The notes beneath the pieces are model-generated. The model did no database searches and was not told the DNA's origin. It saw nothing but the letters and a program-made list of their open reading frames with translations. From IMG/VR virus record IMGVR_UViG_2534681936_000021, positions 1-37,481 of that record: a stretch of DNA of 37,481 nt. One strand, given 5' to 3'. Every line of letters begins with the position of its first letter. Within the stretch, counting starts at the first letter, position 1. The stretch is from a virus (taxonomy: Duplodnaviria; Heunggongvirae; Uroviricota; Caudoviricetes). Position numbers and translations under genes: made by a program. This document shows, in pieces, positions 2,929 through 37,481 of this stretch.

Positions 2929-2936
2929 AGGGCGTT

Positions 2937-3845: not shown

Positions 3846-4141
3846 GCACCATCAATCACCAGAAGCTACGCGAACTGGCATTTGCCCTGCAACGAATGGC
3901 AACGCCTCAAAAATTACTGGTATTTCGCGCAATGCTCTCGCCGTCTGCTGTGCTGGCACTGCTGGATGAGCTGGAGCACGCCAGAACCACGGCTCCTGCC
4001 ATTCGCCTGACGCTCCATCATGAAATCGCTGATTTCTGCGCGACGTTGAAGGCGCCAGGCGAACCGGAAACACCGGAAGTAATACAGCAAGAGCTGCTGC
4101 AACGCATTGACAAGGTTTTTGATTTTTTTCTGAACCAGTAA
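3842..4141 (+). CDS. early-region hypothetical protein (99 aa)
   Basis: ATGA overlap with the upstream gene. Confidence 0.45.
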   Translation: MSTINHQKLRELAFALQRMATPQKLLVFRAMLSPSAVLALLDELEHARTTAPAIRLTLHHEIADFCATLKAPGEPETPEVIQQELLQRIDKVFDFFLNQ

Positions 4142-4263
4142 GAAACCAGAACATGCACACACAAAAAAACCGCTTGCCATGCCGCAATCAGTCAGGTTAC
4201 ATTTCCGCTGCACCTCACAAAACGGGTGTCGGGTTTCGCAGCCTGCTGACTACACAAGCGCAC

Positions 4264-4284
4264 AACCGCGCCAGCGGTTTTTTT
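4264..4284 (+). terminator. intrinsic terminator-like hairpin (aaccgc-gcca-gcggtt followed by T7)
   Basis: 6-bp GC stem, 4-nt loop and a run of 7 T; lies within the non-coding stretch after the early ORFs. Confidence 0.5.
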
Positions 4285-4463
4285 GTGCGTACTGTATTGC
4301 CACGTTTTTTTCGCGTCAGAATTATGGCGGGGCGTACGGGGCCGACTTCGGTCGGGCCGGGTTCTTGTGTAGCCGGTACTGCGAACCTCGTACGTCTCGC
4401 CACCCACAGTTTCGCAGCTCTGGATGGTGAGTTTTCACAACTTACTACACAAGGGGCCACACC

Positions 4464-4640
4464 ATGGCAAACCGCAGACTTTCCCGCGCATCACGCGTCG
4501 CGCAAATCATGCACATCAATATGCTGCATGAGCGCAGCCACGCACTATCAAACATTTATTCCGCCTCTGTTTTCAGCTATCTGGCGGATGATCTGCGCGA
4601 GCTTCAACAGCTCATCCAGCAGCAAAACAAACTCCATTAA
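4464..4640 (+). CDS. possible 58-aa helical protein (MANRRLSRASRVAQIMHINMLHERSHAL...), below the ORF-track size cutoff
   Basis: ATG preceded by aagggg about 7 nt upstream; translation reads as amphipathic helix. Confidence 0.35.
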   Translation: MANRRLSRASRVAQIMHINMLHERSHALSNIYSASVFSYLADDLRELQQLIQQQNKLH

Positions 4641-4712
4641 TTCCTGTTCCGGGCCTTTCCTGCACCTTGCGGCGGGAGGCCTTCGCACATCTGTAACAAG
4701 AGGATTGCCGCA

Positions 4713-5078
4713 ATGATTCTCGCCAACGACTTTCTTGAATACCTGCTCAACACAGAACGTGATCTTGCCGCTCGCGTGCGTGATCGTTATGACATGTACC
4801 AGAAATCCCTGCCTGTACCGCAGCTCGCTGACGGAAAGATTGTTATTGATGGTCGCTACATGATTGACAGCCACGAGGGAAATTACAGGCTTTACCGCAT
4901 TGAAGGTGGCACCCCGTCCGTTATTGGCATTTACCAGCGCCCATCCTCTGCAATCGTCGATGTGATTGCCGACAGCATCCGCATCACACATCGCCATGCC
5001 GACACAGAAGACACCGTGCTGGAAATTCAGCGGCTGGCTGCCGTCTGCCGCGACACCCTGAATGGCATGACGAAGTAA
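4713..5078 (+). CDS. hypothetical protein preceding replication gene A (121 aa)
   Basis: RBS aagagga upstream; clean ORF ending 6 nt before the gene A start. Confidence 0.55.
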   Translation: MILANDFLEYLLNTERDLAARVRDRYDMYQKSLPVPQLADGKIVIDGRYMIDSHEGNYRLYRIEGGTPSVIGIYQRPSSAIVDVIADSIRITHRHADTEDTVLEIQRLAAVCRDTLNGMTK

Positions 5079-5084
5079 ATCACT

Positions 5085-7943: not shown

Positions 7944-7967
7944 TTATTCAACATAAGGAAAAGCGAC

Positions 7968-8927
7968 ATGAAAATTTGTATCGATGACGGCTCCACCAAC
8001 ATCAAGCTGGCATGGACTGAGAACGGCGAACGCCGCAACGCCATCAGCCCAAACAGCTTCAAGTCGGAATGGTCTGCGCCGTTCGGTGGCACGCAGCCCG
8101 CGAACTACATGCTTGATGGCGTGCGCTATGGTTTTGATCCGGTCAGCGATCGCTTTGTCCAGACGACCGACACGCAATACCAGTACAGCGATGTGAATGT
8201 CATTGCTATTCATCACGCGCTGGTCAAATCAGGCATCACACCACAGGAAGTGGATGTGGTTGTCACCCTGCCACTGAGCGAATATTTCGACACAAACGCA
8301 CAGCCGGACATGGTCAACATCAACCGCAAAAAAGCGAACGTCATGCGCCCGGTGGAGTACCAGAACGGCGAAGCATTCACTATCCGTAACGTACGGGTTA
8401 TGCCTGAATCCATTCCGGCTGGCTTTAAAGCACTGGCTGACATGAGTCCGTTTGAATCCCTGCTGATTGTGGATTTGGGCGGAACCACGCTGGATGTGGC
8501 AAAGGTTCAGGGGCAACTGGCAGGTATCAGCCAGGTGTTTTGCGATCCACACGTAGGCGTTTCTCTGATGGCCGATGCCGTACTGTCGGTGATGGCCACT
8601 AACGGTATGCGCACCAGTCACCACATCGCCAATACCATTATCGAACGTCGCCATAATGAAGCCTGGCTGCGCCAGCACATCCACAATGACGCGCATTACG
8701 CCAGCCTGATGGCGGTTATTCGTGAAAAGGAAGAAACACTGAAACAACGCGTGATCCGCGCGCTGGCGGGTTTTTCGGGTTACGGGCGGGTGATGGTTGT
8801 CGGTGGAGGGGCGGAGATTGTGGCACCCGCTATCCGCGAAGCCTGCGGAGTTAATGCGACTTTCATCGCGGACGGGGTGCCACAGTTTGCTCTGGTTAAT
8901 GGGCTGTACGCAATGGACAAGGAGTAA
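7968..8927 (+). CDS. parM: ParM/StbA-family actin-like ATPase
   Basis: N-terminus MKICIDDGSTNIKLAW plus YSDVNVIAIHHAL, VMPESIPAGF, LIVDLGGTTLDV and VMVVGGGAE closely parallel plasmid R1 ParM as recalled. Confidence 0.85.
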   Translation: MKICIDDGSTNIKLAWTENGERRNAISPNSFKSEWSAPFGGTQPANYMLDGVRYGFDPVSDRFVQTTDTQYQYSDVNVIAIHHALVKSGITPQEVDVVVTLPLSEYFDTNAQPDMVNINRKKANVMRPVEYQNGEAFTIRNVRVMPESIPAGFKALADMSPFESLLIVDLGGTTLDVAKVQGQLAGISQVFCDPHVGVSLMADAVLSVMATNGMRTSHHIANTIIERRHNEAWLRQHIHNDAHYASLMAVIREKEETLKQRVIRALAGFSGYGRVMVVGGGAEIVAPAIREACGVNATFIADGVPQFALVNGLYAMDKE

Positions 8928-8931
8928 ACCA

Positions 8932-9243
8932 ATGACAACACCAACCAGACGGATAAGTTTCTATCTGAAGCCAGCTGCCGTCAAGAACGAAGGAGAAGCA
9001 TGCGCCTGGCTGGACAGCCTTACACCAGAAGCCCGCAAAAGCGGCCAACGCGTGGCTTTTCTGGCCGGGCTGGCACTTCTGAAGACGAATCCGGCAGAGG
9101 CTTACCGACTGGCCGCATGGGCTGATGATGAGATGTTACCTGTGACACAAATCAGCTCAAAAAAGTTTGAAGCACAGTCTGCACCAGTGGCTAAGATAAC
9201 CAGCCAGATGGCTGGGAATATCCGGGCGTTATTTCCTGAGTAA
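8932..9243 (+). CDS. parR: ParR-like small DNA-binding partner (103 aa)
   Basis: RBS aaggag upstream, 4 nt after the parM stop; N-terminus RRISFYLKP and LAGLALL segment resemble R1 ParR as recalled. Confidence 0.6.
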   Translation: MTTPTRRISFYLKPAAVKNEGEACAWLDSLTPEARKSGQRVAFLAGLALLKTNPAEAYRLAAWADDEMLPVTQISSKKFEAQSAPVAKITSQMAGNIRALFPE

Positions 9244-23892: not shown

Positions 23893-24494
23893 TGACACAG
23901 GCAAAATTAAACAGTGAATTTATTGCCACAGTAGCGGGTGATATTACCGTCTATAACTATGACAACACGACACGGGAATACATTTCATCATCAACAGAAT
24001 ATCTTGCCGTTGGCGTCGGTATCCCGGCATGTTCTTGTTTAGATGCACCAGTTACACATAAAGCTGGTTATGCAATCTGCCGTTCTGCAGATTTTAACTC
24101 ATGGGAATATGTACCAGACCATCGCGGTGAAATCATCTATAGCACCGAAACAGGAGAATCGAAAGAAATCACAGCTCCGGGTGATTACCCTGAAAATACA
24201 ACCACTATCGCCCCGTTAACGCCATTCGATAAATGGGATGGTGAGAAATGGGTGACGGATACCGAGGCACAGCATAGCGCCGCACTAGACGCGGCAGAAG
24301 CAAAGCGCCAGTCGCTGATTGATGCTGCAATGGCTTCCATCAGTCTGATTCAGATGAAATTACGGGCCGGGCGGAAGCTGACGCAGGCAGAAACCACCCG
24401 ACTTAACGCTGTGCTGGATTACATTGACGCGGTGGAGGCAACAGATACCAGCACCGCGCCTGATGTCATCTGGCCTGAACTGCCGGAGGCGTAG
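23892..24494 (+). CDS. G: tail fibre assembly chaperone gpG-like (copy 1)
   Basis: 200 aa; C-terminal WPELPEA-type tail typical of fibre assembly proteins; follows H. Confidence 0.8.
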   Translation: MTQAKLNSEFIATVAGDITVYNYDNTTREYISSSTEYLAVGVGIPACSCLDAPVTHKAGYAICRSADFNSWEYVPDHRGEIIYSTETGESKEITAPGDYPENTTTIAPLTPFDKWDGEKWVTDTEAQHSAALDAAEAKRQSLIDAAMASISLIQMKLRAGRKLTQAETTRLNAVLDYIDAVEATDTSTAPDVIWPELPEA

Positions 24495-24906
24495 GCCATT
24501 CAATATCTGGCGCACCGGAAGTATCGACCAGTTCCAGTGCGTCCAGATAATCCAGCCACAAATTATATTGCGCCAGTTCCCCACCTTTCAGGCGACCAAT
24601 CGCCGCTTTACCAGGCCATTGCTTACTGTTTATGTATTCGTTGACCTGATTAATCAATTGCTGCTTTTCCAGTTCGGCTGCGGCAATTTGTTCCTCATGA
24701 GTTGGCGGTGGAGTATCAATCCATGCAGGCATTCCGTCGATGACACCTCTGTATTTTCCTTCTGGTGCTTCCTTCATAAATTCGGCGGCAACAGTGTCGT
24801 CAATTTCGATTCCATCACCGGGCCATTCGCCGGATTCCTGATAAGCGATTTTAAGCTCCACAGGGAAAAACGCATTTTTATCGGCACTGAAAATATATTT
24901 CTGCAT
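24466..24906 (-). CDS. tail fibre assembly chaperone, alternative copy (G')
   Basis: 146 aa, convergent with and overlapping G by 29 bp; similar C-terminal motif (DIEWPTPP). Confidence 0.75.
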   Translation of the reverse strand: MQKYIFSADKNAFFPVELKIAYQESGEWPGDGIEIDDTVAAEFMKEAPEGKYRGVIDGMPAWIDTPPPTHEEQIAAAELEKQQLINQVNEYINSKQWPGKAAIGRLKGGELAQYNLWLDYLDALELVDTSGAPDIEWPTPPAVQAR

Positions 24907-24908
24907 TT

Positions 24909-25307
24909 CTACCGTCCTATCGAAATATAACTGAATCTGTATTGCTGTGAGATATCACTGGTTGCCACACGCCACGCTGAATTACTGATATGTTCAAAAT
25001 TTACAGACAAAACCTGCGGGGCAGGATTCGACGGGGCTGACTGAACGGCATCAGACATAACACTGACTGAAACCATCGGCTGATTAGGGAATGGTATAGG
25101 GAAGTGTCCACTGATAAAGCGGGTCGTGTTTCCTGAAAAAGTGCCAAACTGAACAATATATCCACCTGGTAGCCTGAACCATCCCGAACCAGAAGCGAAT
25201 GCTCCCATATCCGGTATCTGATTATCTCCTGTGCCCACATTCCGTTTTGCCGCTTCTCCCAAACCAACGTTTAAGAAAATGCAGAGATTATGGCTAACTG
25301 GCATCAT
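24909..25307 (-). CDS. alternative tail fibre C-terminal segment (Hv'); functional only when fused to the H N-terminus by inversion
   Basis: Frame is continuous with the crossover core at 25265; translation after the core (GLGEAAKRNVG...) parallels H after its core (GLGEGSALPVG...). Confidence 0.6.
   Translation of the reverse strand: MMPVSHNLCIFLNVGLGEAAKRNVGTGDNQIPDMGAFASGSGWFRLPGGYIVQFGTFSGNTTRFISGHFPIPFPNQPMVSVSVMSDAVQSAPSNPAPQVLSVNFEHISNSAWRVATSDISQQYRFSYISIGR
25254..25279. promoter_or_regulatory. right crossover site for the DNA invertase (ttctcccaaacc-aa-cgtttaagaaaa)
   Basis: Inverted partner of 23378-23403; lies 56 bp upstream of the invertase gene. Confidence 0.65.
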
Positions 25308-25334
25308 CCCCGGTTTTTATTCAGGGGATCCATC

Positions 25335-25934
25335 ATGCTTATTGGCTATGTCCGCGTATCAACAAATGACCAGAATACAGAATTGCAGCGTAACGCGCTG
25401 GAGTGCGCAGGATGTGAACTGATTTTTGAAGATAAAATCAGCGGAACGAAATCAGCCAGACCGGGATTGAAAAAACTGATCAGAACGCTATCAGAAGGAG
25501 ATACGCTGGTTGTCTGGAAGCTGGACAGACTGGGCAGAAGTATGAAACACCTGATCACGCTTATTGAGGAATTGCGGGAAAAAGGTGTTAATTTCCGTAG
25601 TCTGACGGACAGCATTGACACATCAACACCCATGGGGCGTTTCTTTTTTCACGTCATGGGGGCTTTAGCCGAAATGGAACGTGAATTAATTGTAGAGCGT
25701 ACACTGGCCGGGCTGGCAGCAGCACGCGCACAAGGACGCATTGGCGGACGTCGCCCGAAGTTGACAAAAGAACAACACGAGCAAATAGCGAGGCTGATTA
25801 AAAACGGTCATGACAGGAAACAACTGGCGATCATTTACGACATCGGCATATCGACGATTTATCGTTATCACCCTGTAGGCGATATACAGGCTGAAGAAAC
25901 AACCAGGCAGACTCAGGAAAATGAAAACCGCTAA
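25335..25934 (+). CDS. serine DNA invertase (Gin/Hin/Pin/Cin family)
   Basis: N-terminus MLIGYVRVSTNDQNTELQ with the catalytic serine context; resolvase-type fold and C-terminal helix-turn-helix (GISTIYRY). Confidence 0.9.
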   Translation: MLIGYVRVSTNDQNTELQRNALECAGCELIFEDKISGTKSARPGLKKLIRTLSEGDTLVVWKLDRLGRSMKHLITLIEELREKGVNFRSLTDSIDTSTPMGRFFFHVMGALAEMERELIVERTLAGLAAARAQGRIGGRRPKLTKEQHEQIARLIKNGHDRKQLAIIYDIGISTIYRYHPVGDIQAEETTRQTQENENR

Positions 25935-25953
25935 TCTGACCATTAGCGGTTTT
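25924..25953. terminator. hairpin between the convergent invertase and U genes (aaaaccgctaat / attagcggtttt)
   Basis: 12-bp perfect stem spanning the invertase stop; short T-run on both sides. Confidence 0.45.
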
Positions 25954-25960
25954 GCGTTAA

Positions 25961-26455
25961 TCAAAACAGCCCTTTAACGGAGCTGGCCGCGCTGTTAAGG
26001 GATGATGTGACCTTATCTTTGAAGCCGGACAGCATATCACTGAACGATGAGGATTGCAGGCGCTCCCGCAAATCCTCATCACAGCGTTCAAGGGTCAGTG
26101 AAAATTCTATCTTTTTCGCCTTACCGTAGCGATCAAACTCGGAACGGGTCGTATTCGTTCCAGTCAGGACATACATGCCGTAAATCTGCCCGACGCCATC
26201 AATCAAAGGCCAGGGTCGTCCTGTATAAGCCTGCGTGGTCAGCAGCGACAGCGACACTTCGCCACCTGTAATTTCAGGATAAAGCACACCAGAAAGAACG
26301 ATGCGATCATCACCTGCACCGATATACTGCCAGCTTGCTGAACGGTTAATGCGTTCATTTTTCACATGCCGCCAGCTTTTGTTTTGCTGTAACTGCTGAT
26401 GCGGCAGCGTGCGCAGCTCAAAAACAAACATGCCGTAGATCATCATCATGGCCAT
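25961..26455 (-). CDS. U: tail protein gpU-like
   Basis: 164 aa, immediately downstream of the tape measure gene on the same strand. Confidence 0.8.
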   Translation of the reverse strand: MAMMMIYGMFVFELRTLPHQQLQQNKSWRHVKNERINRSASWQYIGAGDDRIVLSGVLYPEITGGEVSLSLLTTQAYTGRPWPLIDGVGQIYGMYVLTGTNTTRSEFDRYGKAKKIEFSLTLERCDEDLRERLQSSSFSDMLSGFKDKVTSSLNSAASSVKGLF

Positions 26456-26461
26456 GACTCC

Positions 26462-29305
26462 TCAATCTTTATCGTAAAAACTGCCACGCCCGGCACGGGC
26501 GCGCCGTTCCATTTCTGCCCTGACCATTTCACCGACCAGTTTCGCCAGTTCGCGGGGATTCTGCGTAACAACGTTATGCAGATGAACATGAATTTCACCA
26601 CCAAATTCGGAGGCAACAGGCTCCCGGTTACGGGAAGTTACAGGAACTGATGCCACTGGAGATCGTATAGCCTCCGCCACCGGGCGGGAGCTGGCCGCAA
26701 CAACAGTGACCAGCGCCGGAGGCAGCGGAGCCGGGACCACGGGTGTGATATTAATTGCGGGGGCAGGCTTACTGACCTGCGCAATCTTCCGCTCCTGCCA
26801 CTCCCCACGAACAGCAAGTGCCCGGGGCAGGTTTTTAAAGACAATATCGCCGGGGCCAATGCGTTTTTTCGTCTCCTCAACCAGCTTACCTGTGTTATCA
26901 GCAATTTTGCTGAGTCTGCGCAGCGTACCGGTATTGCTGTCTGTGAGCGGTTTATTGTCTTTGGGGTTATCACCTCCGGTGCCATTGCCATTTTCCACAG
27001 GCTTCGGCGGATTGATTTTCGCCAGGTCCCCCTGAAGCAAGGCAACCTTGTCCTGAAGAATGGCCGCACGCTGTGCGTCTTCGATTTTCTTGCGCGCCCT
27101 TTCCGCTTCATCCGGAAGCACACCAAGCTTTTCAAGTATCCACGCCAGCGTATCCAGCAACATTTTTGCAGGTGTCAGAACAAGTTGTAACGCACCGCCA
27201 AGAACGTTACCGAATATCTCGCCAGCACTGGTACATTTATCCAGAGTTTCCTTGCTGGACTCCATCGGTGACAGCAGCGATTTAAACCAGTTAAACACCT
27301 GGCTGATCCCACTCCCGATTGCGTCAAAAACAGGACTAAACCGTTCAAAGGTTTCGCGCAACGGGGTCAGCCTTTCCATAATCCCGCTGAACACCCCGGC
27401 AAAAAATGCCCTGATGGGATCCCAGTATTTCCAGATAAGAACGGCAGCTCCGGCAAGCGCAGCCACGATAAGACCAACCGGACTGAACAACGCCCCGATA
27501 GCGCCTCCCAGCAAAGAAACGGAACCCGTCACCATTCCCCATAGTGCTGGCAGAACCCTGACAGCATTCATTGATCCGGTCAGGAGGGAAAAACCAAGAC
27601 GCAGTTTTGCCAGCGGGCCAGCAAGCACACCAATAGCCAGCGACAACGAGCCAACCGTTGCAGTCATTGCCAGCAGTGCACCGCCTGCAATCAGTAGCTG
27701 GCGCGTCAGTGCGGGATGGGCCTGCGCCAGCGCCGTCACCTTTGATACCACACGCGTGAGCCACTGCGTGACAGAACGCAGCGGACCGTCAATCAGATCT
27801 GCAATGCGGATGCGCAACCCTTCCCATGCACTGCTGAGTGATTTCAGATCGCCGTCAAGGTTGTTGGCCATAACCTTTGCCGTGCGTTCAGCCTCACCGC
27901 GCGCACCTTCAAGTTCTTTTCTCAGTTTGGGTAAGGAGCCGTCACCTGCCGCATCAACGAGGGCCATAAATGATGTGAAAGCCTCTTCTCCGGCAATGTC
28001 CTTAAAGAACGATACCCGGTCAACTTCCCCGTATTTGCGGGTAGCTTTATAAAGGTCAGCCAGCACATCCTCCATCGGACGCATTTTGCCCCCGGCATCC
28101 GAGACAGACACGCCAAGCTCTTTCAGCGCCTCTGCTGCCGCCTTTGGCGGTGATGCCAGACGAGCCAGGCTGGCACGCATTGCCGTCCCGGCATCACTCC
28201 CCCTGATACCCATATTCGCCAGCACGCCTGCCATCGCTGCGGCCTGCTCCAGCGATATTCCCAGCTTACCCGCCACCGGACCTGCATATTTCATGGTTTC
28301 ACCCAGTGCGCGAAGGTCAGTGTTGGTACGGGTAAACGCTGCGGTGAGTGTGTCGCCGACCCGGTCCATCTGGTCAGCAGAAAGACCGAACTGCGTCAGA
28401 ATATTTGAGCCAATATCCGCCGTCTCACCGAGGTCCATACCGCCAGCCGTTGCCATGCTCAGTACGCCAGGGAGCGCAGCCTGAATGGCCTGTGGTGTGA
28501 AGCCGGCCATTGCAAGAAATGCCTGCCCACTGGCGGCATCGCCTGCGGTGAACTGCGTTTCAGAGCCAAGTTTTAACGCCTGCTCACGCAGCGCCTTAAA
28601 CTGCGGGCTGTTTTTGTCGATTCGCGTCAGTGCCTGAACGCGGGACATCTCTTTCCCGAACCCGATCGCAGGCTGCAAAAAACGCCCGGCAGCATAGCCG
28701 CCCGCAGCTGCCGCACCAATTGCCAGCGCACCACCTGTTTTCAGTTTTCCCGCTGTTTCCTGCGCGCGCGAATACCGCTCACGCGCCCGCGTTACACGCG
28801 CAAGCGCCTGCCGTTCGCGTTCAAGCTGGTTGTTGTACTGTTCGGTGCGTCTGATGGCCTGCTGGATGGTGTTATCGCTGCCTGTCAGGGAAATGCCGTG
28901 GCGTTTCAGCTCTCCGCCAAGCTCCCGCATTTTCTGAATTTCCCGTGTGCGCGATTCATTCAGGCGTTCAAGCCGGGTGCTTAACTGCTGCATCAGCTTT
29001 TGTTGTTTTTCGCTGAGCACTGTACCCGTGCGTTGTAACTGATTAAGGGCGTTAAGCTGGCGTCGTGCTTTCACGATACCCGCATCCGCTTTACTGACAG
29101 CGTCGCGGGCGCGCTCAAATGAACGCGCCTGACGCTCGAGATTTTTGATCGCCCCCTGCGTTCGCTGGATGGAGTCACCAAACTGCCCCATCAGGCGGCG
29201 GGCGTTTTCGGCAGGCCGGGTCAGCCTGTCAACGGCGCTGAAAGCGACCCGGATATCAAGAGTCTTCATTGTCTGCATTCCCGCTGCGAAGTGCCGCCCG
29301 CTCAC
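26462..29305 (-). CDS. T: tail tape measure protein gpT-like
   Basis: 947 aa, coiled-coil N-terminal half and glycine/alanine-rich hydrophobic central region. Confidence 0.85.
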   Translation of the reverse strand: MSGRHFAAGMQTMKTLDIRVAFSAVDRLTRPAENARRLMGQFGDSIQRTQGAIKNLERQARSFERARDAVSKADAGIVKARRQLNALNQLQRTGTVLSEKQQKLMQQLSTRLERLNESRTREIQKMRELGGELKRHGISLTGSDNTIQQAIRRTEQYNNQLERERQALARVTRARERYSRAQETAGKLKTGGALAIGAAAAGGYAAGRFLQPAIGFGKEMSRVQALTRIDKNSPQFKALREQALKLGSETQFTAGDAASGQAFLAMAGFTPQAIQAALPGVLSMATAGGMDLGETADIGSNILTQFGLSADQMDRVGDTLTAAFTRTNTDLRALGETMKYAGPVAGKLGISLEQAAAMAGVLANMGIRGSDAGTAMRASLARLASPPKAAAEALKELGVSVSDAGGKMRPMEDVLADLYKATRKYGEVDRVSFFKDIAGEEAFTSFMALVDAAGDGSLPKLRKELEGARGEAERTAKVMANNLDGDLKSLSSAWEGLRIRIADLIDGPLRSVTQWLTRVVSKVTALAQAHPALTRQLLIAGGALLAMTATVGSLSLAIGVLAGPLAKLRLGFSLLTGSMNAVRVLPALWGMVTGSVSLLGGAIGALFSPVGLIVAALAGAAVLIWKYWDPIRAFFAGVFSGIMERLTPLRETFERFSPVFDAIGSGISQVFNWFKSLLSPMESSKETLDKCTSAGEIFGNVLGGALQLVLTPAKMLLDTLAWILEKLGVLPDEAERARKKIEDAQRAAILQDKVALLQGDLAKINPPKPVENGNGTGGDNPKDNKPLTDSNTGTLRRLSKIADNTGKLVEETKKRIGPGDIVFKNLPRALAVRGEWQERKIAQVSKPAPAINITPVVPAPLPPALVTVVAASSRPVAEAIRSPVASVPVTSRNREPVASEFGGEIHVHLHNVVTQNPRELAKLVGEMVRAEMERRARAGRGSFYDKD

Positions 29306-29474
29306 GCCAGCTAACCACTTCGCCGGGCGTCATCATGAAGATTTCGGCGGGCGACCAGTTAAAAATAACGGCAATATCTGCCACAAAGTCTTCTATGTGC
29401 TCAAAGCACACAACCGTGATCAGGCTTCCGTCGCCTGTTCGTTCTTCCCGCCAGAGTCCGCACCGCTCAAAAAA
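29256..29474 (-). CDS. E' extension, expressed as an E+E' fusion by programmed -1 frameshift
   Basis: ORF in the -1 frame continues from the slippery site and overlaps the T start. Confidence 0.6.
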   Translation of the reverse strand, partial: FFERCGLWREERTGDGSLITVVCFEHIEDFVADIAVIFNWSPAEIFMMTPGEVVSWRERAALRSGNADNEDS

Positions 29475-29785
29475 TTTACGGCAACCACACATAACTGAAT
29501 AAAGTCACGGGATGCTATTTTTTTGATCGTCACTTCATCCAGTCGCGGTGATGTCACGCGTGACAGCAGCGTAAACATGGATTCCGCTTTCAGATTCAGC
29601 ACATCAGACAGCGACAAATCTCGCAGAGATCCAGCCTGCTCAATAGCTCCGGTGATCTCCACATACGTGATTTTTTCGCCGCCTCGCTCAATTGGTTGGG
29701 TAAGTTTTACGCCACGCTCACTGGTTTCTTTCACAGTGTCAGCAACGACCGTGTTTTCGGTATCGATGTTTTTCGTCTCTTTCAT
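29420..29785 (-). CDS. E: tail assembly chaperone gpE-like
   Basis: 121 aa; RBS aaggag upstream; lies between the tube and tape measure genes. Confidence 0.8.
   Translation of the reverse strand: MKETKNIDTENTVVADTVKETSERGVKLTQPIERGGEKITYVEITGAIEQAGSLRDLSLSDVLNLKAESMFTLLSRVTSPRLDEVTIKKIASRDFIQLCVVAVNFLSGADSGGKNEQATEA
29468..29474 (-). other. slippery heptamer T_TTT_TTG for the programmed -1 frameshift (E to E+E')
   Basis: TTTTTTG in the correct register near the 3' end of E (zero-frame codons TTT TTG). Confidence 0.65.
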
Positions 29786-29839
29786 CAGGAAACTCCTTTC
29801 AGTCAGAGGCGACGCACTGCGCCGCCTGCATATTACTTA

Positions 29840-30352
29840 TCAGCCAAGCCCGAGCGCGGAACGGATGCGATCGGGCACAATGTCCTTGCCGTCCTTCCGG
29901 TAAATGAAGTTCAGCAGGTCAATCTCCCACAACGGGCGATCGTTAACACTCAGCTTGTAGTAGGTGTTTTTAATGGCGTAAGTGTGTGATGTGGCTTCGC
30001 CCTGTTTGGCTTCCCCCATATCAATTTCCGTCACACGTCCGCGCATTTCGACTTCATACAGGTCGCTTTCTGCATCGGTGTAATATTCACCCGCAAAACG
30101 CAGCAGCGTGCCGTCAATCGTGCCGCCATACTTAAGGAACAGCTCACGAACTGCGCCCCCCATGACAAAGCTCGCATCAAGCGCGGAGTCGTCCAGACCG
30201 AGATCAATACTTACCGCCCCCATCATGCCACCACCCCGGTAGCTGTCGGTTTTGCGCGTCAGCTTAGGCAGAGTGACGGACGTCACCTTACCCACTTCGT
30301 TTTCACCATCCACAAACAGCGTAAAAAAGCGAAGATGTTTTGGCACAGCCAT
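29840..30352 (-). CDS. FII: tail tube protein gpFII-like
   Basis: 170 aa directly downstream of the sheath gene. Confidence 0.85.
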   Translation of the reverse strand: MAVPKHLRFFTLFVDGENEVGKVTSVTLPKLTRKTDSYRGGGMMGAVSIDLGLDDSALDASFVMGGAVRELFLKYGGTIDGTLLRFAGEYYTDAESDLYEVEMRGRVTEIDMGEAKQGEATSHTYAIKNTYYKLSVNDRPLWEIDLLNFIYRKDGKDIVPDRIRSALGLG

Positions 30353-31536
30353 CAGGCACCTCCCAGCACCGCAAATGCGGGACCAAAGAATTCATCAGTA
30401 AACGTCTGGTAAAGCTCCATGTCTTCCAGTGGCGGAACGGGCGTATATTTGTAGCGAATACGCACACGCCCCTGACGTAAATCCGTGGTGCCGTTATCCA
30501 CCACGTCATACCAGCACGACGCCCCAATCAGTTTCCCGGCAGTAACCAGTGAATCCAGTTTTGCCCTGATGGCACTGATAACATCTTTCACGTTCGCAGG
30601 CGTCAGTGGACTGTCGATGGTTTCAAACTGCGCTTCCGCAATTGAATCAGCCAGCACCTGTGCGGTTCGGGTATACACCTCAAAGATGTAGGCGTTCGTT
30701 TCCGGTGTGCGGTTGCCCCAGAAGCGGAACCCGTTGCGACGAATAATGGTCGTGATTTCTTTGTTGTTGAGGCTGTTGGCATCACTGTCTTCGGCCTGCA
30801 ACGACCAGAACACATGCCTCGACATCCCCAGCACATTCTTAACCGGAACGTTGGAGAGTGATTTGTGCCATCCCTGCTCATGGTCAATGTACGCACGAAG
30901 GCCGCACGCATAGGCAGGCGCGGGGAACGTTTCGTTTTTGCCACTTTTCGGGTTGTAGGCGATGAAGTCCGGCCATAAGAGCATCACCTCACGTTCGTTG
31001 AATTTCTGGCGGTAGGTAATCGCATCAGCCATCGTGTCACAGCCATGACATGAGGCATACACAAACGCGCGCAGTTTACCCGCAATCACGCACAGGGATT
31101 TTGTCACCGCCTCCGTATCCAGCTCCGGCGCGGCCAGAATACGCGGACGGTATCCGATGCTTTCATCCTGCTCTGCAACAAGCAGCGCATACATCCCCGT
31201 ATAGCTGCCGTCAGATTCAGAACCACCGATAACCAGTTGATCCTGCGTTTTTCCGTCTTCTTCTTTGTGTTCAGCCACGCGAACGACGATCACCTTTGTG
31301 CTCACCTGGTCTGCGATGGCCTTAAGCGCACGATAAAGCGTCCCCGTTGTTCCGCATTTTCCCAGCACGTCATTGACGCGGGTCAGCAGTGTGGGCTTGT
31401 TCAGCGGGAACAGCTCCGCGTCCGCATCATCCGCCGTTGCCACGATACCGATAACACTGGAATCAACATCATTAATCGCTGTTACCAGGTCGGTACTTTC
31501 CGTAACACGGGCACCATGAAAACGAGTTTCACTCAT
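30352..31536 (-). CDS. FI: contractile tail sheath protein gpFI-like
   Basis: 394 aa; segments FPLNKP, KLRAF, WPDF, DHEQGWHKSLSNV, RRNGFRFWGNRT, YTRTAQV and YTPVPPLE resemble P2 FI as recalled. Confidence 0.9.
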   Translation of the reverse strand: MSETRFHGARVTESTDLVTAINDVDSSVIGIVATADDADAELFPLNKPTLLTRVNDVLGKCGTTGTLYRALKAIADQVSTKVIVVRVAEHKEEDGKTQDQLVIGGSESDGSYTGMYALLVAEQDESIGYRPRILAAPELDTEAVTKSLCVIAGKLRAFVYASCHGCDTMADAITYRQKFNEREVMLLWPDFIAYNPKSGKNETFPAPAYACGLRAYIDHEQGWHKSLSNVPVKNVLGMSRHVFWSLQAEDSDANSLNNKEITTIIRRNGFRFWGNRTPETNAYIFEVYTRTAQVLADSIAEAQFETIDSPLTPANVKDVISAIRAKLDSLVTAGKLIGASCWYDVVDNGTTDLRQGRVRIRYKYTPVPPLEDMELYQTFTDEFFGPAFAVLGGA

Positions 31537-31693
31537 AGCTTCAGCCCCTTGTATCCGTTAAATGATTCGGCAACAATCATCACCCACCACGCGCGTAATC
31601 TCACTCCTGCGCCGTTCTCCCGCCACGGCGACAACAAAAAGCAGTAACCCCCTCCGCACGCACATGCGACCATGCCGCACAGGGAGGGAACAG

Positions 31694-32802
31694 ATGACCG
31701 ACACCACCATGCAATTGCTCAGTCAGGGCACAGACCCCGTGAAAATGCCGGATTTTGATATTCTCGCGGAGGGTAAAACGCTGTCAGGCGTGGCAGAGCG
31801 CCTGATGAGCCTGTCACTGACCGACAACCGGGGATTTGAAGCGGACCAGCTCACCATCACGCTGGATGATGCGGATGGTCAGTTGCAGCTACCGCCACGG
31901 GGCGCGCGCCTGACGGTTCTCATTGGCTGGAAAGGAGAACCGCTGACAGAAAAAGGCACTTACATTGTTGATGAAATCGCTCACGAAGGACCGCCGGACA
32001 GGCTGACTGTTTCAGCCAGAAGCGCAGATTTTCGGGATGAATTTAACGTTAAACGTGAGGTGTCCTGGCATGATGTGACCGTTGAGCGTGTGGTATCCGC
32101 CATCGCTCATCGGTACGGTCTGAAACCGCAAATCAGCGAAATGCTGATGGATATCGAAATCGACCACGCCGACCAGACCGAAGAAAGCGACATGTCCTTC
32201 CTTACGCGCATGGCGGAAATGCTGGGCGCAATCACCACGGTAAAAAGCGGCAATCTGTTATTCATCATGCCTGGTGGTGGCGTGAACGCACAGGGCCAGC
32301 CGTTGCCCTCGTTCGCCATTACACGCAGCAGTGGCGATCGCCATCAGTTCCGCATTGCTGACCGCGAGGCGTATACGGGTGTACGCGCCTACTGGCTTGA
32401 TCTTAATTACGGGAAAAAGAAAAAGTCAGCGTGAAACGCCGCAAACCGCCAAAACCCAAAAAGGAGAAAAGCAGCAGCCGTGAAGGTGATTATATGGAAG
32501 GCGCGGAAGGCAATGTGTTTGTGTTACGCAAGACTTATCAGAACGAGCAGGCAGCAAGACGCGCAGCGGCGGCAAAGTGGCAGCAGCTACAACGCGGAGC
32601 CGCATCATTCTCCATCATGCTGGCACGCGGACGCGCAGAACTCTACCCCGAAATGCATGGCACGGTAACAGGCTTTAAAAGCGAGATTGATAATCAGGAC
32701 TGGATTATTGCAAAAGCCGAGCACACCATTGATAACAGCGGCTTTACCACACAGCTTGAGCTTGAGGCAAAAATCCCGGAATGGATAGCAGAAACAGAGT
32801 GA
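31694..32802 (+). pseudogene. D: late control / tail protein gpD-like, split by a single-base frameshift in the gggaaaaagaaaaag run (about 32411-32430)
   Basis: Track ORFs ending at 32434 and starting at 32431 together give a gpD-like protein (...SWHDVT..., ...GDRHQF..., ...QDWIIAKAEH...SGFTTQLELE...). Confidence 0.75.
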
Positions 32803-32870
32803 GCAACTTAGACATATTAGCTCAGACTTAAACTGGCAAGTTTACAGTATAGAATTAAACATAAACGACG

Positions 32871-32899
32871 GTCCGCTCCGTGTCAGAAGCGGACTTTGT
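32871..32899. terminator. hairpin between convergent D and the 340-aa gene (gtccgct / agcggac followed by TTTGTC)
   Basis: 7-bp stem flanked by A-rich and T-rich sequence. Confidence 0.45.
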
Positions 32900-32922
32900 C
32901 ATCCCTATGTAAGGTTGATTGC

Positions 32923-33945
32923 TTAATACGCATTTAATTTAAATTTGTATTTGCCTTCTATGTAATGGATAAATTCAATTATGCTTTTTTCTATCGCATC
33001 TAATATATGAATATATCCATCCCGATTTAAGGTCCTATCCAACTCAAAGTGATGAACTATCCCATGTCTATATTGTATGATTTCAGAAATTCGATTCTCA
33101 AGAAAATCAACTGATTTTCCAATTCTTTTTTTCTTATAAAGAATCGCTCTCACATCTATATCCAGCCACTCTTTATATGCTTTGTTTAGGTGGGTTAAGT
33201 TTTGAAAAGTGTAATTTCTTGCAATAACACTTTCTATTGAAATATTTCCTTTCTCTATCTCAAGCAGAATATCAAAATCAACTTTTTGCTTATACGATGT
33301 TCTTTTTGCTATTGCGAAAGGATCGTACTTTATAAGTATTTGAAAAGCTCTAGAGAAAAAATATTCAAACATAGCAACCGCAAAAGGTACTAATCCATTA
33401 TATATAACTCTACTGGGATCCATACATTGCATGTAATCAAAGTATTCGGATAAGCCGCCATCTTCCGGTAGGTTTAATTTAATAGAAGGTTCAGGTAAGG
33501 CATGTTTAACAGCGGAAATCTCATGATGGACATGATTAAATATTGAAGAAATGCCACGACTGATCGGACTACTAGAATCCTTCCATAGAGGAGCGTACCT
33601 ATTTTTCCCATAATCACCTATAAGTGTTCCACCAAAAAGACTCCGTGCGCCTTTTAGAACATCATTAAGCATTTTTACATCATGCCAACTAGCGCTATAT
33701 AAATTACGCACATGCAATGCCCATTTATTACCAGATATGTGTAGTTCGTCATTTGAAACAGGATATATATCAGCCGAAACTCCATCTGTAGATTTGAAGT
33801 CCGTATCATCAAACCAAGAGTAATTCAACGTTCCTTGGGGCCATTCCCACAAATGTTTACACCTTTTAAAACCTAAATTTTCAAGGTAATTTTTAAGTTC
33901 GTTTCTAGTTGCTTTTTTAGGGTACAGCGTTATATCTCTTCCCAT
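32923..33945 (-). CDS. hypothetical 340-aa protein in an AT-rich insertion; C-terminal Rx4HH motif (candidate HEPN-like abortive-infection protein)
   Basis: Long clean ORF in markedly AT-rich DNA between D and ogr; motif YRHGIVHHFE near the C-terminus. Confidence 0.6.
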   Translation of the reverse strand: MGRDITLYPKKATRNELKNYLENLGFKRCKHLWEWPQGTLNYSWFDDTDFKSTDGVSADIYPVSNDELHISGNKWALHVRNLYSASWHDVKMLNDVLKGARSLFGGTLIGDYGKNRYAPLWKDSSSPISRGISSIFNHVHHEISAVKHALPEPSIKLNLPEDGGLSEYFDYMQCMDPSRVIYNGLVPFAVAMFEYFFSRAFQILIKYDPFAIAKRTSYKQKVDFDILLEIEKGNISIESVIARNYTFQNLTHLNKAYKEWLDIDVRAILYKKKRIGKSVDFLENRISEIIQYRHGIVHHFELDRTLNRDGYIHILDAIEKSIIEFIHYIEGKYKFKLNAY

Positions 33946-34136
33946 GCTTTATTCACCTGATATACAATATTTTAAATTTTAACTATTATGAACGTATGAA
34001 TTTTCACATTGGATGTATGGAAGTTCAACAACTATTGAAAGTTCAATTTTCACTCTTCGCACAGAGCGAGCTGTTAGTTGGAATTAGGGATCGTACAATC
34101 TAGAATAGCGGCAACACCACGTTAAGGGAGGTCGCT

Positions 34137-34397
34137 ATGTTCCGTTGTCCGCTTTGTGGCGCATCTGCCCGTATCCGCACAAGTCGTCCGGAAAATGATT
34201 CAAACACCGTGCGGCAAAAGTATTACCAGTGTAACAATCTGGAATGCGGCGTATGCTTCTCAACACTGGAAGCTTTCCATAAATTCACATCGAAACACGC
34301 CTCCGGCGTTCACTCTTCAGAAGGTATCCCGTGGCATGAGCTACCAGCTTCACACAGGGGAAACAATCAGATGAGTTTGCCTTTACCTCAGAATTAA
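34137..34397 (+). CDS. ogr: Ogr/Delta-family zinc-finger late transcription activator
   Basis: MFRCPLCGA...CNNLEC zinc-finger pattern typical of P2 Ogr; RBS agggagg upstream. Confidence 0.8.
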   Translation: MFRCPLCGASARIRTSRPENDSNTVRQKYYQCNNLECGVCFSTLEAFHKFTSKHASGVHSSEGIPWHELPASHRGNNQMSLPLPQN

Positions 34398-34588
34398 CAA
34401 GCAGAATTGCCGGAGTAACAAAAAAGCGATAGATTACGCGCGGGTGCCTTTCGGCTGATGGTCGGAGGGAATACCCGAAGGCCAGATGTGGAAAGGCCCC
34501 GGAAAACACTTTTGTTTAACCGAGGCCCTAACCGTCTACCCTAAGCAAGTGAAAGGTTAGCGCCTCTCCGGAAAAGGAGCAAGTGCTA

Positions 34589-34729
34589 TGTCGCAAAAAT
34601 CGCTTACAGCCATCACGTTCTGCGTGACGGTAATCCTCATCATCTGGATGTTGCACGGTTCGCTGTGCGAAATACGGATGAGTTTCTGGGGAGCGGAGTT
34701 TGCGGCGTTCTTACAGTGTAAGCAGTAAG
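34589..34729 (+). CDS. Hok/Gef-family type I toxin (46 aa), below the ORF-track size cutoff
   Basis: MSQKSLTAITFCVTVILIIWMLHGSLCEIR...AEFAAFL: transmembrane helix followed by the Hok-like SLCEIR and E(F/V)AAF motifs; RBS aaggag 8 nt upstream. Confidence 0.6.
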
Positions 34730-34738
34730 GAAACCGCG

Positions 34739-34760
34739 ACGGGGGAGTAATCCCCCGTCA
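34739..34760 (+). other. stable 9-bp hairpin just 3' of the hok-like ORF (gacggggga-gtaa-tcccccgtc)
   Basis: Perfect inverted repeat 10 nt after the stop; consistent with a hok mRNA 3' fold. Confidence 0.5.
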
Positions 34761-34989
34761 ATCGGTTGCCAGGGTAAGGTCGATAAGGCACCCTATCTCA
34801 CGGCTCTAAATGCAAAAATTCCATGAAACTGTGGGATTTTTGCATCACTACTGATACAGATCTGACCTTCTTTATGTCTCACTCTATACCAGCTAATCAA
34901 TTGACACTTATCAATAAAAAAAAATCTGATAAAATCAAAATGTTTTGTAACAAATATCAACTCGTATTGATCCAAAGGAGGCGGATTAC

Positions 34990-35322
34990 ATGGCATTAAT
35001 CAAATGTCCTGAATGCCAGAAAGAGGTGAGCGATTCAGCATTGTATTGCCCTGCTTGCGGTAAACAAATAAAAAAACTTAAGCGTTCATTTTTTGGAAAG
35101 CTCATTAAGTGGATTTTTATATTATTTAATATTTTTATGATCTATACGCTTTTAGTTGGACTGGGAGGCACTAGTGAAATAATAAATAATGCTACATCCG
35201 ATGCCGAAAAAGCCGGTGCAGTTATTGGTACAGGCTTAGGTTTAATTACCATTGGAAGTTTATGGGTTATTGGCGATATCATTATCGGAATTTTAGTGTT
35301 TCTTACTAAACCAAAAGGATAA
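34990..35322 (+). CDS. zinc-ribbon membrane protein (110 aa)
   Basis: N-terminal CPEC...CPAC zinc ribbon followed by two hydrophobic helices; AT-rich context. Confidence 0.5.
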   Translation: MALIKCPECQKEVSDSALYCPACGKQIKKLKRSFFGKLIKWIFILFNIFMIYTLLVGLGGTSEIINNATSDAEKAGAVIGTGLGLITIGSLWVIGDIIIGILVFLTKPKG

Positions 35323-35326
35323 CAAA

Positions 35327-36218
35327 ATGAAAAATATAATTTTTCTATAGGTGCATCATTTATATCAATTGGTGTACTGCCTGTTCACGCAGCAACTGAA
35401 CATAATAACTTCAATGCAGTACTCCAGTGCCGAGCAATAGAAAATAATAAAGACAGACTTTCTTGTTACGATAAGTCAATACAACCGACTCGAACGAAAG
35501 TTGCTGAAAAATTCGAAAGCAGAGATCAATGCCCTGATGAGAAAGATGATGACAGACGTTTATCTTGTTATGATCGTTTTTTTCTCCAACATTTACTCCA
35601 TCTGTAAACTCAAAATCTAAAACGGAAAAGCCAGTAACAACAGAGGCTCAGCAACCAAATCTTTCTGAGATATCTAAATGCCGAGCAGAAAATGATAAAG
35701 AAGCCAGACTAAACTGCTACGATAAACTATTCCCACAGGATAAAGCTGTTCAAGCTGAATCAAAATTAGAGAAAGCCACAGATGTAGGAAAATGGCACAC
35801 ATCCATTACTACATCGCCAATTGATGATTCGAAAAATGTAATTTTATCGTTAGAAAGTGATGATTATATCAGAACTCCATTTGGAGAAGCGGTTACTCCT
35901 ACTCTGTTTATAGCTTGCCGAGAAAAGAAAACCGAAGTATTTCTTGGTTGGGATGTATATTTAGGCCTTGAACAAACCAGCATGCTTTATCGTCTTGATA
36001 AACAGAAAGCAGTTGAGCGAAACTGGCTAGTATCTACAGATACAAAGGCTGTTTTTTATAAAGGTAATGACATTGATTTCATCCGAAAACTAGCCAACTC
36101 AAACAAAATGTATACAAAAATAACTCCTTATAATGAGAGCCCTGTAAGTGCAACTTTCAATTTAAACGGCCTGTCAAACGCGCTAAAACCACTTCAAGCT
36201 GCTTGTAACTGGAAATAG
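35327..36218 (+). pseudogene. frameshifted gene for a secreted protein with three Cys-x9-10-Cys-Tyr-Asp repeats
   Basis: Signal-peptide-like start (MKNIIF...); frame breaks at T-runs near 35340 and 35577-35583; an ATG-less open frame continues to 36218. Confidence 0.45.
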
Positions 36219-36245
36219 CATAAATCATGTGGCTTAGCCACAATC

Positions 36246-36289
36246 ACAGATAACACAAAGCCCGTGGAAACGGGCTTTGTGTTATCTGT
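36246..36289. other. 19-bp perfect inverted repeat with 6-nt loop (acagataacacaaagcccg / cgggctttgtgttatctgt)
   Basis: Seen directly; lies between the upstream pseudogene and the candidate attR. Confidence 0.55.
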
Positions 36290-36299
36290 AACTCGAAAA

Positions 36300-36319
36300 T
36301 GTGGTCACTACGTGGACAC
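36300..36319. repeat. candidate attR core (tgtggtcactacgtggacac)
   Basis: 17 of 20 identity in direct orientation with 10-29 at the int end. Confidence 0.35.
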
Positions 36320-36485
36320 GTGCTGATATAAATCCTTTTATATCAATAAATTAAATCATCATTTTTTTCATCAACAAGGATTTTCACGTTTGTGTTACCT
36401 GTATGAGACGAGAGTTAACCGGACAAGTGTGCCATAATCTCGCGGCCAGGCATACTTGCGAAGATTTCAGGTATAAGGATACGTA

Positions 36486-37481
36486 ATGATACAACCTATT
36501 TCCGGCCCTCCTCCTGGGCAACCACCAGGTCAGGGAGATAACCTGCCGTCTGGCGCGGGCAATCAGCCTTTATCCAGTCAGCAACGTACTTCGCTGGAAA
36601 GCTTAATGACGAAAGTGACCTCACTGACGCAACAGCAAAGAGCAGAACTGTGGGCGGGTATCAGGCACGATATTGGTCTGTCGGGAGATTCACCGCTGCT
36701 TTCGCGTCACTTCCCTGCCGCTGAGCATAATCTGGCGCAACGTCTGCTGGCCGCGCAAAAAAGCCATTCTGCCCGCCAGCTTTTAGCGCAATTAGGGGAG
36801 TATTTACGTCTGGGGAATAATCGTCAGGCGGTCACGGATTATATCCGTCATAACTTTGGTCAGACGCCGCTGAATCAGCTCTCACCGGAGCAATTAAAAA
36901 CCATTCTCACCCTGTTGCAGGAAGGGAAGATGGTTATTCCGCAACCGCAGCAGCGCGAGGCGACCGATCGTCCTCTATTACCGGCGGAGCACAATGCGCT
37001 CAAACAGCTGGTGACCAAACTTGCGGCGGCAACGGGGGAGCCCAGCAAACAGATCTGGCAATCGATGCTGGAACTTTCCGGGGTGAAAGATGGCGAGTTA
37101 ATTCCAGCGAAACTGTTTAACCATCTGGTGACCTGGCTGCAGGCGCGTCAGACGCTAAGCCAGCAAAATACGCCGACGCTGGAATCACTACAAATGACGC
37201 TAAAACAACCTTTAGATGCCAGTGAACTGGCGGCGTTATCGGCATATATCCAGCAAAAATATGGCCTTTCTGCGCAATCATCGCTTTCTTCTGCCCAGGC
37301 CGAGGATATTCTTAATCAGCTTTATCAACGGCGGGTTAAAGGGATTGATCCGCGTGATATGCAACCGCTGCTTAATCCTTTTCCACCGATGATGGACACG
37401 TTGCAAAATATGGCAACGCGTCCCGCGCTGTGGATACTGTTAGTCGCGATTATCCTGATGCTGGTCTGGCTGGTTCGTTAA
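36486..37481 (+). CDS. flk: Flk-like flagellar regulator with C-terminal membrane anchor (host gene)
   Basis: Pro/Gln-rich N-terminus MIQPISGPPPGQPPGQ and C-terminal hydrophobic anchor ALWILLVAIILMLVWLVR; recognised from memory of enterobacterial Flk. Confidence 0.55.
   Translation: MIQPISGPPPGQPPGQGDNLPSGAGNQPLSSQQRTSLESLMTKVTSLTQQQRAELWAGIRHDIGLSGDSPLLSRHFPAAEHNLAQRLLAAQKSHSARQLLAQLGEYLRLGNNRQAVTDYIRHNFGQTPLNQLSPEQLKTILTLLQEGKMVIPQPQQREATDRPLLPAEHNALKQLVTKLAAATGEPSKQIWQSMLELSGVKDGELIPAKLFNHLVTWLQARQTLSQQNTPTLESLQMTLKQPLDASELAALSAYIQQKYGLSAQSSLSSAQAEDILNQLYQRRVKGIDPRDMQPLLNPFPPMMDTLQNMATRPALWILLVAIILMLVWLVR

Follow-up and report, generated by a model that had tools for sequence, protein, structure and literature searches.

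Predicted arm-type integrase-binding sites near the ends of a P2-like prophage whose crossover core lies in the start of pdxB

The window (the whole 37.5-kb stretch of DNA analyzed here) begins at its left edge with the stop codon of a reverse-strand int gene and ends at its right edge with the host gene flk (36486-37481). The int gene belongs to a P2-like prophage, with an ogr/Delta-type late activator as the last core phage gene, followed by hok-like, zinc-ribbon and TagO-like genes, a perfect hairpin and, finally, a short segment of host DNA; the coordinates are given in Table 1. The left flank of the prophage, which is absent from the window, is provided by FDAARGOS_946 (locus L001), which carries the same prophage with 99.9% identity over the tested right-end segment. 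In this locus, the order is pdxB, a 203-bp spacer and the int stop codon, the last of which corresponds to window position 1. The empty site is represented by the homologous region of C41(DE3) (locus L002).

Table 1. Features of the prophage ends, the adjacent cargo and the host junction (window coordinates)
Feature	Position	Strand	Basis
int, P2-type tyrosine integrase, 334 aa	1-1005	-	50% identity to P2 Int over full length; Pfam Int_N and Phage_integrase
P' arm, two tandem arm-type Int binding sites (predicted)	CGTGGACAC at 10-18 and 21-29	+	inside int 3' codons (SVHAVST); aligns with annotated P2 Int P' arm and with Wphi
ogr/Delta-type late activator, last core phage gene before the cargo	34137-34397	+	Pfam Ogr_Delta, E = 5e-14; L001 annotation
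Hok/Gef-family toxin gene, cargo	34588-34728	+	Pfam HOK_GEF; between ogr and attP in phage genomes
Zinc-ribbon membrane protein gene, cargo	34990-35322	+	Pfam Zn_Ribbon_1; present in P884B11, PhiSM, PhiR44_2 and 500465-2
TagO/VasI-like gene, cargo, disrupted	about 35327-36218	+	Pfam VasI on C-terminal ORF; 894-nt intact homolog in P884B11
Perfect hairpin, 20-bp stem, 4-nt loop; probable bidirectional intrinsic terminator	36246-36289	.	P2 terminator position; compensated changes
P arm, two tandem arm-type Int binding sites (predicted)	TGTGGTCAC at 36300-36308, CGTGGACAC at 36311-36319	+	base-for-base alignment with annotated P2 Int P arm atgtggtcaatgtgtggac
IHF consensus site (predicted), tATCAAtaaaTTa	36341-36353	+	between P arm and core; exact WATCAANNNNTTR match
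att core, attR copy, TTTTCATCAACAAGGATTTT	36365-36384	+	antisense of pdxB codons 2-8; sole copy in window
Host DNA, B' side: native pdxB start codon, leader, promoter region and flk upstream region	36385-36485	.	identical to empty site, L002 3022-3121

Two 20-mers, CGTGGACACTGCGTGGACAC at 10-29 and TGTGGTCACTACGTGGACAC at 36300-36319, are identical in 17 of the 20 positions. Each consists of two 9-mers separated by a 2-nt gap, which gives a period of 11 bp: cGTGGACAc twice in the left copy, and tGTGGTCAc followed by cGTGGACAc in the right one. The initial annotation described these sequences as imperfect 20-bp direct repeats built of 9-mer units, which is accurate, and placed them at both ends of the prophage, which is correct as far as the presence of two copies is concerned; however, the left copy is not located at the prophage end, given that the window starts at the int stop codon, which is itself 182 bp inside the prophage. 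The published consensus of the P2-type arm sites is tgTGGaCa, with two direct repeats per arm (PMC3448106), and the repeats in the window fit this consensus, with two direct repeats in the same orientation on each side of the core. A search of both strands of the 37.5-kb window with the pattern GTGGNCANNNNGTGGACA (at most one mismatch), which was built from the published P2 arm consensus and thus is independent of the window, identifies only two places, 10-29 and 36300-36319 (0.01 expected), and two matches were obtained in none of the 100 shuffled sequences. The same two places are also the only tandem pairs of the arm motif in the window.

The sequence shared by the phage and the host is a different 20-mer, TTTTCATCAACAAGGATTTT, which is present in two copies in L001 (8059-8078 and 44628-44647), the first of these being attL, 182 bp to the left of window position 1. 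Comparison of the empty site in C41(DE3) (...cataaggcatATTTTCATCAACAAGGATTTTcacgtttgtg...), the left junction of the lysogen in L001 (...cataaggcatATTTTCATCAACAAGGATTTTtaaccctttt...), the right junction in the window (...aatcatcattTTTTTTCATCAACAAGGATTTTcacgtttgtg...) and attP, the latter represented by two phage sequences, shows that TTTTCATCAACAAGGATTTT alone is common to all of them. The four-way alignment displays the expected pattern, that is, attB = B-O-B', attL = B-O-P', attR = P-O-B' and attP = P-O-P'. All 5,426 complete Escherichia coli genomes searched with the right end produce a match, and in most of these, the similarity begins only at window position 36365, with pdxB to the left of it. 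Furthermore, for the phage PhiSM of Citrobacter rodentium, a 17-bp attP/attB sequence, ATCCTTGTTGATGAAAA, located in E. coli K-12 6 bp inside pdxB, has been determined experimentally (PMC6456863), and bases 1-17 of TTTTCATCAACAAGGATTTT are its reverse complement. These comparisons fix the boundaries of the prophage, with attR as listed in Table 1 and attL outside the window, 182 bp to the left of it.

Integration cuts off the native pdxB start, leader and promoter region from the body of pdxB. On the attL side, the phage supplies the sequence AAGGAG followed, after 7 nt, by an in-frame TTG, which yields a replacement start of pdxB (LSETEKGL-KILVDENMPYARD...). The same combination of TTG and AAGGAG is provided upon the integration of PhiSM, and the PhiSM lysogens grow on minimal medium (PMC6456863). 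In L001, the P' spacer that bears these elements and restores pdxB occupies positions 8079-8260 (182 nt to the left of window position 1). This spacer also contains a 13-bp hairpin immediately downstream of the int stop codon (-26.6 kcal/mol, z = -5.6). The int and pdxB genes point in the same direction, and read-through from int could contribute to the expression of pdxB.

The element ends at 36384, 1,987 bp beyond the ogr stop codon (34397), which bears out the boundary about 1.9 kb beyond ogr that had been proposed from the sequence; comparison with the empty site in C41(DE3) places the boundary at 36365-36384, not directly after ogr, and most E. coli genomes lose the similarity to the left of 36365. 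Given that the end of the element lies past all three genes, the hok-like, zinc-ribbon and TagO-like genes are prophage cargo, as had been suggested for these genes (the TagO-like one described as frameshifted). The same three genes are encoded in the same slot, between ogr and attP, in four phage genomes (P884B11, PhiSM, PhiR44_2 and 500465-2), and the cargo found in the ogr-attP interval varies among the phages of this group. In the window, the TagO/VasI-like gene is disrupted by two 1-nt deletions, at about 35344 and 35576, one of which is in a T-run, and it is intact in P884B11, PhiSM and many E. coli prophages. A tandem or composite element, with a P2-like prophage adjoining a separate island that would consist of the hok, zinc-ribbon and TagO genes, was considered as well and is ruled out by the lack of a second core (with up to 3 mismatches) in the window and by the phage genomes that carry the same cargo between ogr and attP.

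The arrangement of the attachment region in the unintegrated phage can be read directly from the genome of phage P884B11. The sequence obtained by joining window positions 36000-36384, the 182-nt spacer from L001 and window positions 1-400 is contiguous in this genome (LR595891.1, 26515-27471), with 93.9% identity over all 967 nt. A whole-genome blastn comparison aligns window positions 34791-36384 with P884B11 positions 25305-26889, and window positions 1-9243 with 27072-36362, such that the gap is exactly the 182-nt spacer. The P884B11 genome contains only two pairs of the motif, at 26806-26823 and 27082-27099, 276 bp apart, and these flank the core at about 26870-26889. Thus, the arm repeats lie outside the crossover core and on its two sides in the phage that is not integrated. 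Integration at TTTTCATCAACAAGGATTTT sends the two pairs to the opposite ends of the prophage, and for this reason, they look like terminal direct repeats.

The initial annotation considered the two 20-bp repeats to be candidate att cores, that is, the site of crossover between the phage and the host. These are indeed direct repeats near both ends of the prophage in the window, and their occurrence is statistically non-random. Nevertheless, the 20-mer that is duplicated exactly at the host-phage junctions (36365-36384 and L001 8059-8078) is the different one described above; the empty pdxB-flk site contains no GTGGACAC repeats; the left copy lies within int; and the core of PhiSM, which has been determined experimentally, is the other sequence (PMC6456863). 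The stretches that separate the repeats from the junctions (36320-36364 on the right, and the 182-nt spacer with an additional 9 nt on the left) belong to the phage and are contiguous in phage genomes. A search for the arm repeat near pdxB-flk in the empty site of C41(DE3) found none, the sole match (with 3 mismatches) being located 3.3 kb away, at chance level. Because each repeat has phage DNA on both sides and the empty site lacks such a sequence, the repeats cannot be crossover cores, and this reading is effectively untenable. Arm-type integrase sites can pass for att cores when only the interior of a prophage is visible; these sites are in direct orientation at the opposite ends of the prophage, with one of them, in this case, inside int.

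All these observations point, with high confidence, to the two 20-bp repeats being accessory arm-type sites of a P2-type heterobivalent tyrosine integrase, with the real crossover core, TTTTCATCAACAAGGATTTT, located 45 bp further to the right, in the pdxB start. Homology and position suggest that these sites are bound by the integrase. The GenBank record of P2 (AF063097) annotates a rho-independent terminator (24265-24288), the Int P arm (24293-24320), an IHF site (24324-24357), the Int attP core (24356-24383), a Cox region (24399-24472) and the Int P' arm (24470-24496), the latter inside the 3' end of int (CDS 24462-25475). The same order of elements, namely terminator hairpin, P-arm pair, IHF site, core, spacer and P' pair in the int 3' end, is found in the phage from the window, and the arm repeats have the same orientation. 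The arm sequences of P2 are gATGTGGTCAaTGTGTGGACg (P) and cTGTGGACAcTGTGTGGACAc (P'), and those of Wphi are gATGTGGACgctATGTGGACAg and gTGTGGACActATGTGGACAc; the P2 arm sequences atgtggtcaatgtgtggac and ctgtggacactgtgtggacac align with the arms in the window. In the alignment of the window, P884B11, Chuche, P2 and Wphi, the arm repeats are retained in all five sequences, and so is the adjacent block GA-ATAAATCC-TTTAT-TCA, which in P2 falls within the annotated IHF region. P2 and the phage from the window have almost the same sequence in the arm repeats and in the IHF block, and their Int proteins are 50% identical.

In contrast, the cores are unrelated: that of P2 is AAAAAATAAGCCCGTGTAAGGGAGATT, compared to TTTTCATCAACAAGGATTTT in the phage from the window, and the core region of Wphi shows no relationship to the window core either. 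There are several other differences from P2. The spacer between the core and the P' arm is 191 bp long here, compared to 87 bp in P2 (that is, about 100 bp longer), and supplies pdxB with a new ribosome-binding site and a TTG start; cargo of about 2 kb separates ogr from attP; and matches to the P2-type Cox box are not enriched in the 182-nt P' spacer.

The left copy of the repeat is part of a coding sequence, and accordingly, it can be proposed that there is no shared function at all, with the left copy kept as the C-terminus of Int (SVHAVST) and the right copy being similar by chance or through an old duplication. P2 Int ends in the similar sequence SVHTVST, which is compatible with this possibility, and protein constraint could explain part of the conservation of the left copy. 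However, the P' pair of Wphi is conserved although it lies outside the int reading frame, and the P2 record annotates the counterparts of both pairs as Int binding sites. Comparison of the relatives with distinct cargo is also relevant here. In nine relatives that carry, between them, three cargo modules next to attP (TagO-like; Com and DNA methyltransferase; DUF4875), the sequences TGTGGTCA and CGTGGACA are invariant; the core is almost completely invariant as well, as is the greater part of the IHF block. Where the cargo is of another type (Chuche, VTB97432v, AJ1 and STEC308), the similarity to the window starts at about 36292, 8 nt before the arm pair, and the non-coding right pair is invariant even though the flanking cargo is wholly different. 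In the more distant Klebsiella phage 3LV2017, which has an unrelated core, both arms are altered together to tandem repeats of the GTGGATGC type in the same positions: the P arm, gATGGATGCtaaGTGGATGC, comes after a terminator hairpin and before an IHF-like block, and the P' arm, GTGGATGGaatGTGGATGC, is inside the int 3' end. Such concerted change of two separated pairs of repeats is expected of sites that are read by one protein domain but not of crossover cores, and it is equally at odds with the absence of a shared function, which thus appears extremely improbable. The P-arm block is present in about 207 of the 5,426 complete E. coli genomes.

Assuming that the repeats are protein-binding sites, they might be recognized by a phage protein other than Int, for instance, the immunity repressor or an excisionase of the Cox type. 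Direct repeats that are one helical turn apart are bound by directionality factors, too (PMC7498355). However, the P2 Cox box, TTAAA(G/C)NC(A/C) (PMC3936717), is unrelated to the repeats. So are the repeats resembling a repressor operator that are located between C and cox (ATGCCAYATCGGGCACA, 1416-1432 and 1447-1463). The motif is, instead, equal to the published Int arm consensus (PMC3448106), so binding by another protein seems very improbable. A scan of the 182-nt P' spacer for P2-type Cox boxes detects no enrichment (5 matches with up to 2 mismatches compared to 6.2 expected), and the Cox protein of this phage may recognize a sequence other than the P2 Cox box. The direct repeats between the C-type repressor gene and cox have the sequence ATGCCA(T/C)ATCGGGCACA, are 31 bp apart, and are probably half-sites of the immunity operator.

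Recognition of the arm repeats by Int is compatible with the conservation of the N-terminus of this protein (MSIKKLEDGRYLLDIRP compared to MAIKKLDDGRYEVDIRP in P2 Int). The Y/D/R residues have been proposed as the arm-site discriminators in the P2-type integrases (PMC3448106). In the Int of the window, Y11, D14 and R16 are retained, with a spacing that fits these discriminators, although the mapping of the residues is inferred. Exact matches to WATCAANNNNTTR occur three times in the window, and one of these is at the predicted IHF site, within the block ATAAATCCTTTTAT-TCAA that is shared with the region of P2 annotated as the IHF site.

By homology with P2, the following mechanism of integration can be proposed. 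The N-terminal domain of Int would bind the TGTGGACA-type repeats, such that each arm accommodates two protomers on the same face of the helix, in line with the 11-bp period, and IHF would bend the P arm at its predicted site so that the arm-bound Int reaches the core. The catalytic domains of Int would then exchange strands inside the 20-bp core, and for excision, Cox would act on the P' side. The arm pairs lie ~276 bp apart in the circular phage, on either side of TTTTCATCAACAAGGATTTT, and integration separates them to the ends of the prophage.

Closely similar systems are those of PhiSM (Shae_phiSM) and coliphage P88, members of the genus Xuanwuvirus that integrate into pdxB. They share the core with the phage from the window, with ATCCTTGTTGATGAAAA contained in the 20-bp core, and have the same TTG and AAGGAG start; the cargo and the right end are about 96% identical, and the right end of PhiSM includes this hairpin as well, along with a P-arm pair in which a single base is different. 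In contrast to these phages, the copy in the window has frameshifts in gpD and in the TagO-like gene and contains an additional ORF, HEPN-like, in the interval from gpD to ogr. The PhiSM paper (PMC6456863) makes no mention of arm sites, IHF or the hairpin. The pdxB integration site and the P2-type arm sites are both already published, and the current understanding is unchanged.

In the attP region of phage lambda, which is recognized by a heterobivalent Int as well, the arm sites are distinct from the core, IHF bends the DNA, a directionality factor (Xis) is involved, and a hairpin (tI/sib) is located downstream of int, across attP. The phage from the window follows the same logic, although the sequences and the number of the arm sites are unrelated to those of lambda.

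The hairpin just inside the right end consists of two arms, 36246-36265 and 36270-36289, of 20 nt each, which are 100% complementary; thus, the 19-bp inverted repeat reported for this position is perfect, as stated, but is longer by one base pair, with a 4-nt loop. The folding energy is -35.4 kcal/mol for the plus strand and -38.7 kcal/mol for the minus strand (z about -9.7). The upper stem, AAAGCCCGT-GGAA-ACGGGCTTT, is G+C-rich and is followed by the U-rich TTTGTGTT on both strands, in accord with the perfect palindrome. A simple terminator scan does not call this hairpin: once the stem is extended to the full 20 bp, no T-run follows, and the U-rich tract becomes visible only when the stem is limited to its upper, G+C-rich portion. 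In P884B11, the hairpin differs in three stem positions, all of which are compensated (ACAGATAACACAAAGCCCG compared to TCAGATGACAAAACGCCCG), and retains a perfect fold with an energy of -35 kcal/mol; these three compensated differences support the long stem. The relatives with other cargo have, in the same place, a shorter (9-10 bp), unrelated, G+C-rich hairpin with a clearer U-rich tail on the minus strand. A search of the whole window against Rfam at the gathering thresholds yields nothing at the hairpin or in the att region, the only matches being C4 and isrK at 4210-4407.

It had been noted that this stem is unusually long for a terminator. It is long indeed, but its position matches that of the annotated rho-independent terminator of P2 (the hairpin ends 10 nt before the P-arm pair, compared to 4 nt between the end of the P2 terminator and the P arm), and it has a G+C-rich top with U-rich tracts on both strands. 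Judging from these sequence features, the hairpin is most likely a bidirectional intrinsic terminator, or insulator, between the cargo and attP. In the plus orientation, the transcript of the cargo (TagO) would terminate here. In the minus orientation, the hairpin would stop the int-sense transcript when the phage is circular and, in a lysogen, the transcripts that start at the native pdxB promoter, which is orphaned and points into the prophage. Another small hairpin, TGTGGCTAAGCCACA, is located at 36228-36242, just past the stop codon of the TagO-like gene, and is scored as terminator-like on the minus strand.

An alternative for the long hairpin is a target of RNase III similar to lambda sib, located downstream of int across attP, whereby the stability of the int mRNA would depend on whether the phage is free or integrated. 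The location of the hairpin in the circular phage, downstream of int across attP, is appropriate for this role, and integration parts it from int; the minus-strand RNA can form a 24-bp stem, which is long enough for RNase III; and the compensated changes deep in the stem suggest selection on the full length. However, the relatives with other cargo possess only the hairpin of 9-10 bp, so that the long stem is not a conserved requirement; template-switch repair also can keep palindromes perfect without selection; and a search of the literature for sib-like control of this kind yielded no precedent among P2-like phages. Taken together, these considerations leave such regulation a small chance, and a bidirectional terminator is the preferred assignment.

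The hairpin arms share a motif, ACAG(A/G)TAACA(CAAA), with their surroundings: it is found in both arms (36246-36259 and 36276-36289), in the pdxB leader (36389-36402) and in the P' spacer (L001 8174-8183). The hairpin arm ACAGATAACACAAA matches the native pdxB leader to the right of the core (36389-36402, ACAGGTAACACAAA on the minus strand) in 13 of 14 positions, and none of the 1000 shuffles gives as good a match; the same arm and the P' spacer (L001 8174-8183) have an exact 10-mer in common (4 of 1000 shuffles). ACAGRTAACA, which was considered as a possible site of protein binding, has 5 matches in the 47-kb locus, compared to 0.15 expected, and 4 of the 5 are around att. The motif was not found in the hairpins of the relatives with other cargo or in the C/cox operator region; because it is missing from the former, it is not needed for integration. 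That the hairpin is more than an insulating terminator, either as a sib-like RNase III element through which int expression would depend on the integration state or through RNA pairing with the orphaned pdxB leader, is improbable.

Several other features of the prophage deserve mention. Compared to P884B11, gpD (about 31695-32804) has a 1-nt deletion in an A-run at 32419, which splits this essential tail gene into two ORFs (31562-32434 and 32431-32802); the deletion is either a sequencing error in the homopolymer or a sign that the prophage is defective. Between gpD and ogr, a 340-aa ORF on the minus strand (32923-33945) shows a weak match to HEPN (RiboL-PSP), with E = 1e-4, below the Pfam cut-off. 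The interval that includes this ORF, 32813-34100, has no counterpart in P884B11 and may be an extra, possibly defense-related, cargo insertion. The FI-U block of tail genes was suspected to be aberrantly inverted compared to P2, but this was rejected because P884B11 has the same arrangement. The Rfam matches in the early region, both on the plus strand and above the gathering score, are isrK (4210-4284) and the C4 antisense RNA (4320-4407). The segment 7968-9243 (L001 16228-17503), which follows the replication endonuclease gene, encodes a ParM-like protein along with partition/stability genes and is a plasmid-type segregation module inside a P2-like prophage; the same module is present in P884B11. 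The P-arm block has nine matching places on plasmids. An ETEC plasmid (NZ_LR883008.1, 12728-22865) carries a remnant of the right end of the phage that includes a gpD fragment, ogr, hok, the zinc-ribbon and TagO-like genes, the hairpin, the arm pair and the core, and adjoins a truncated topoisomerase-like gene.
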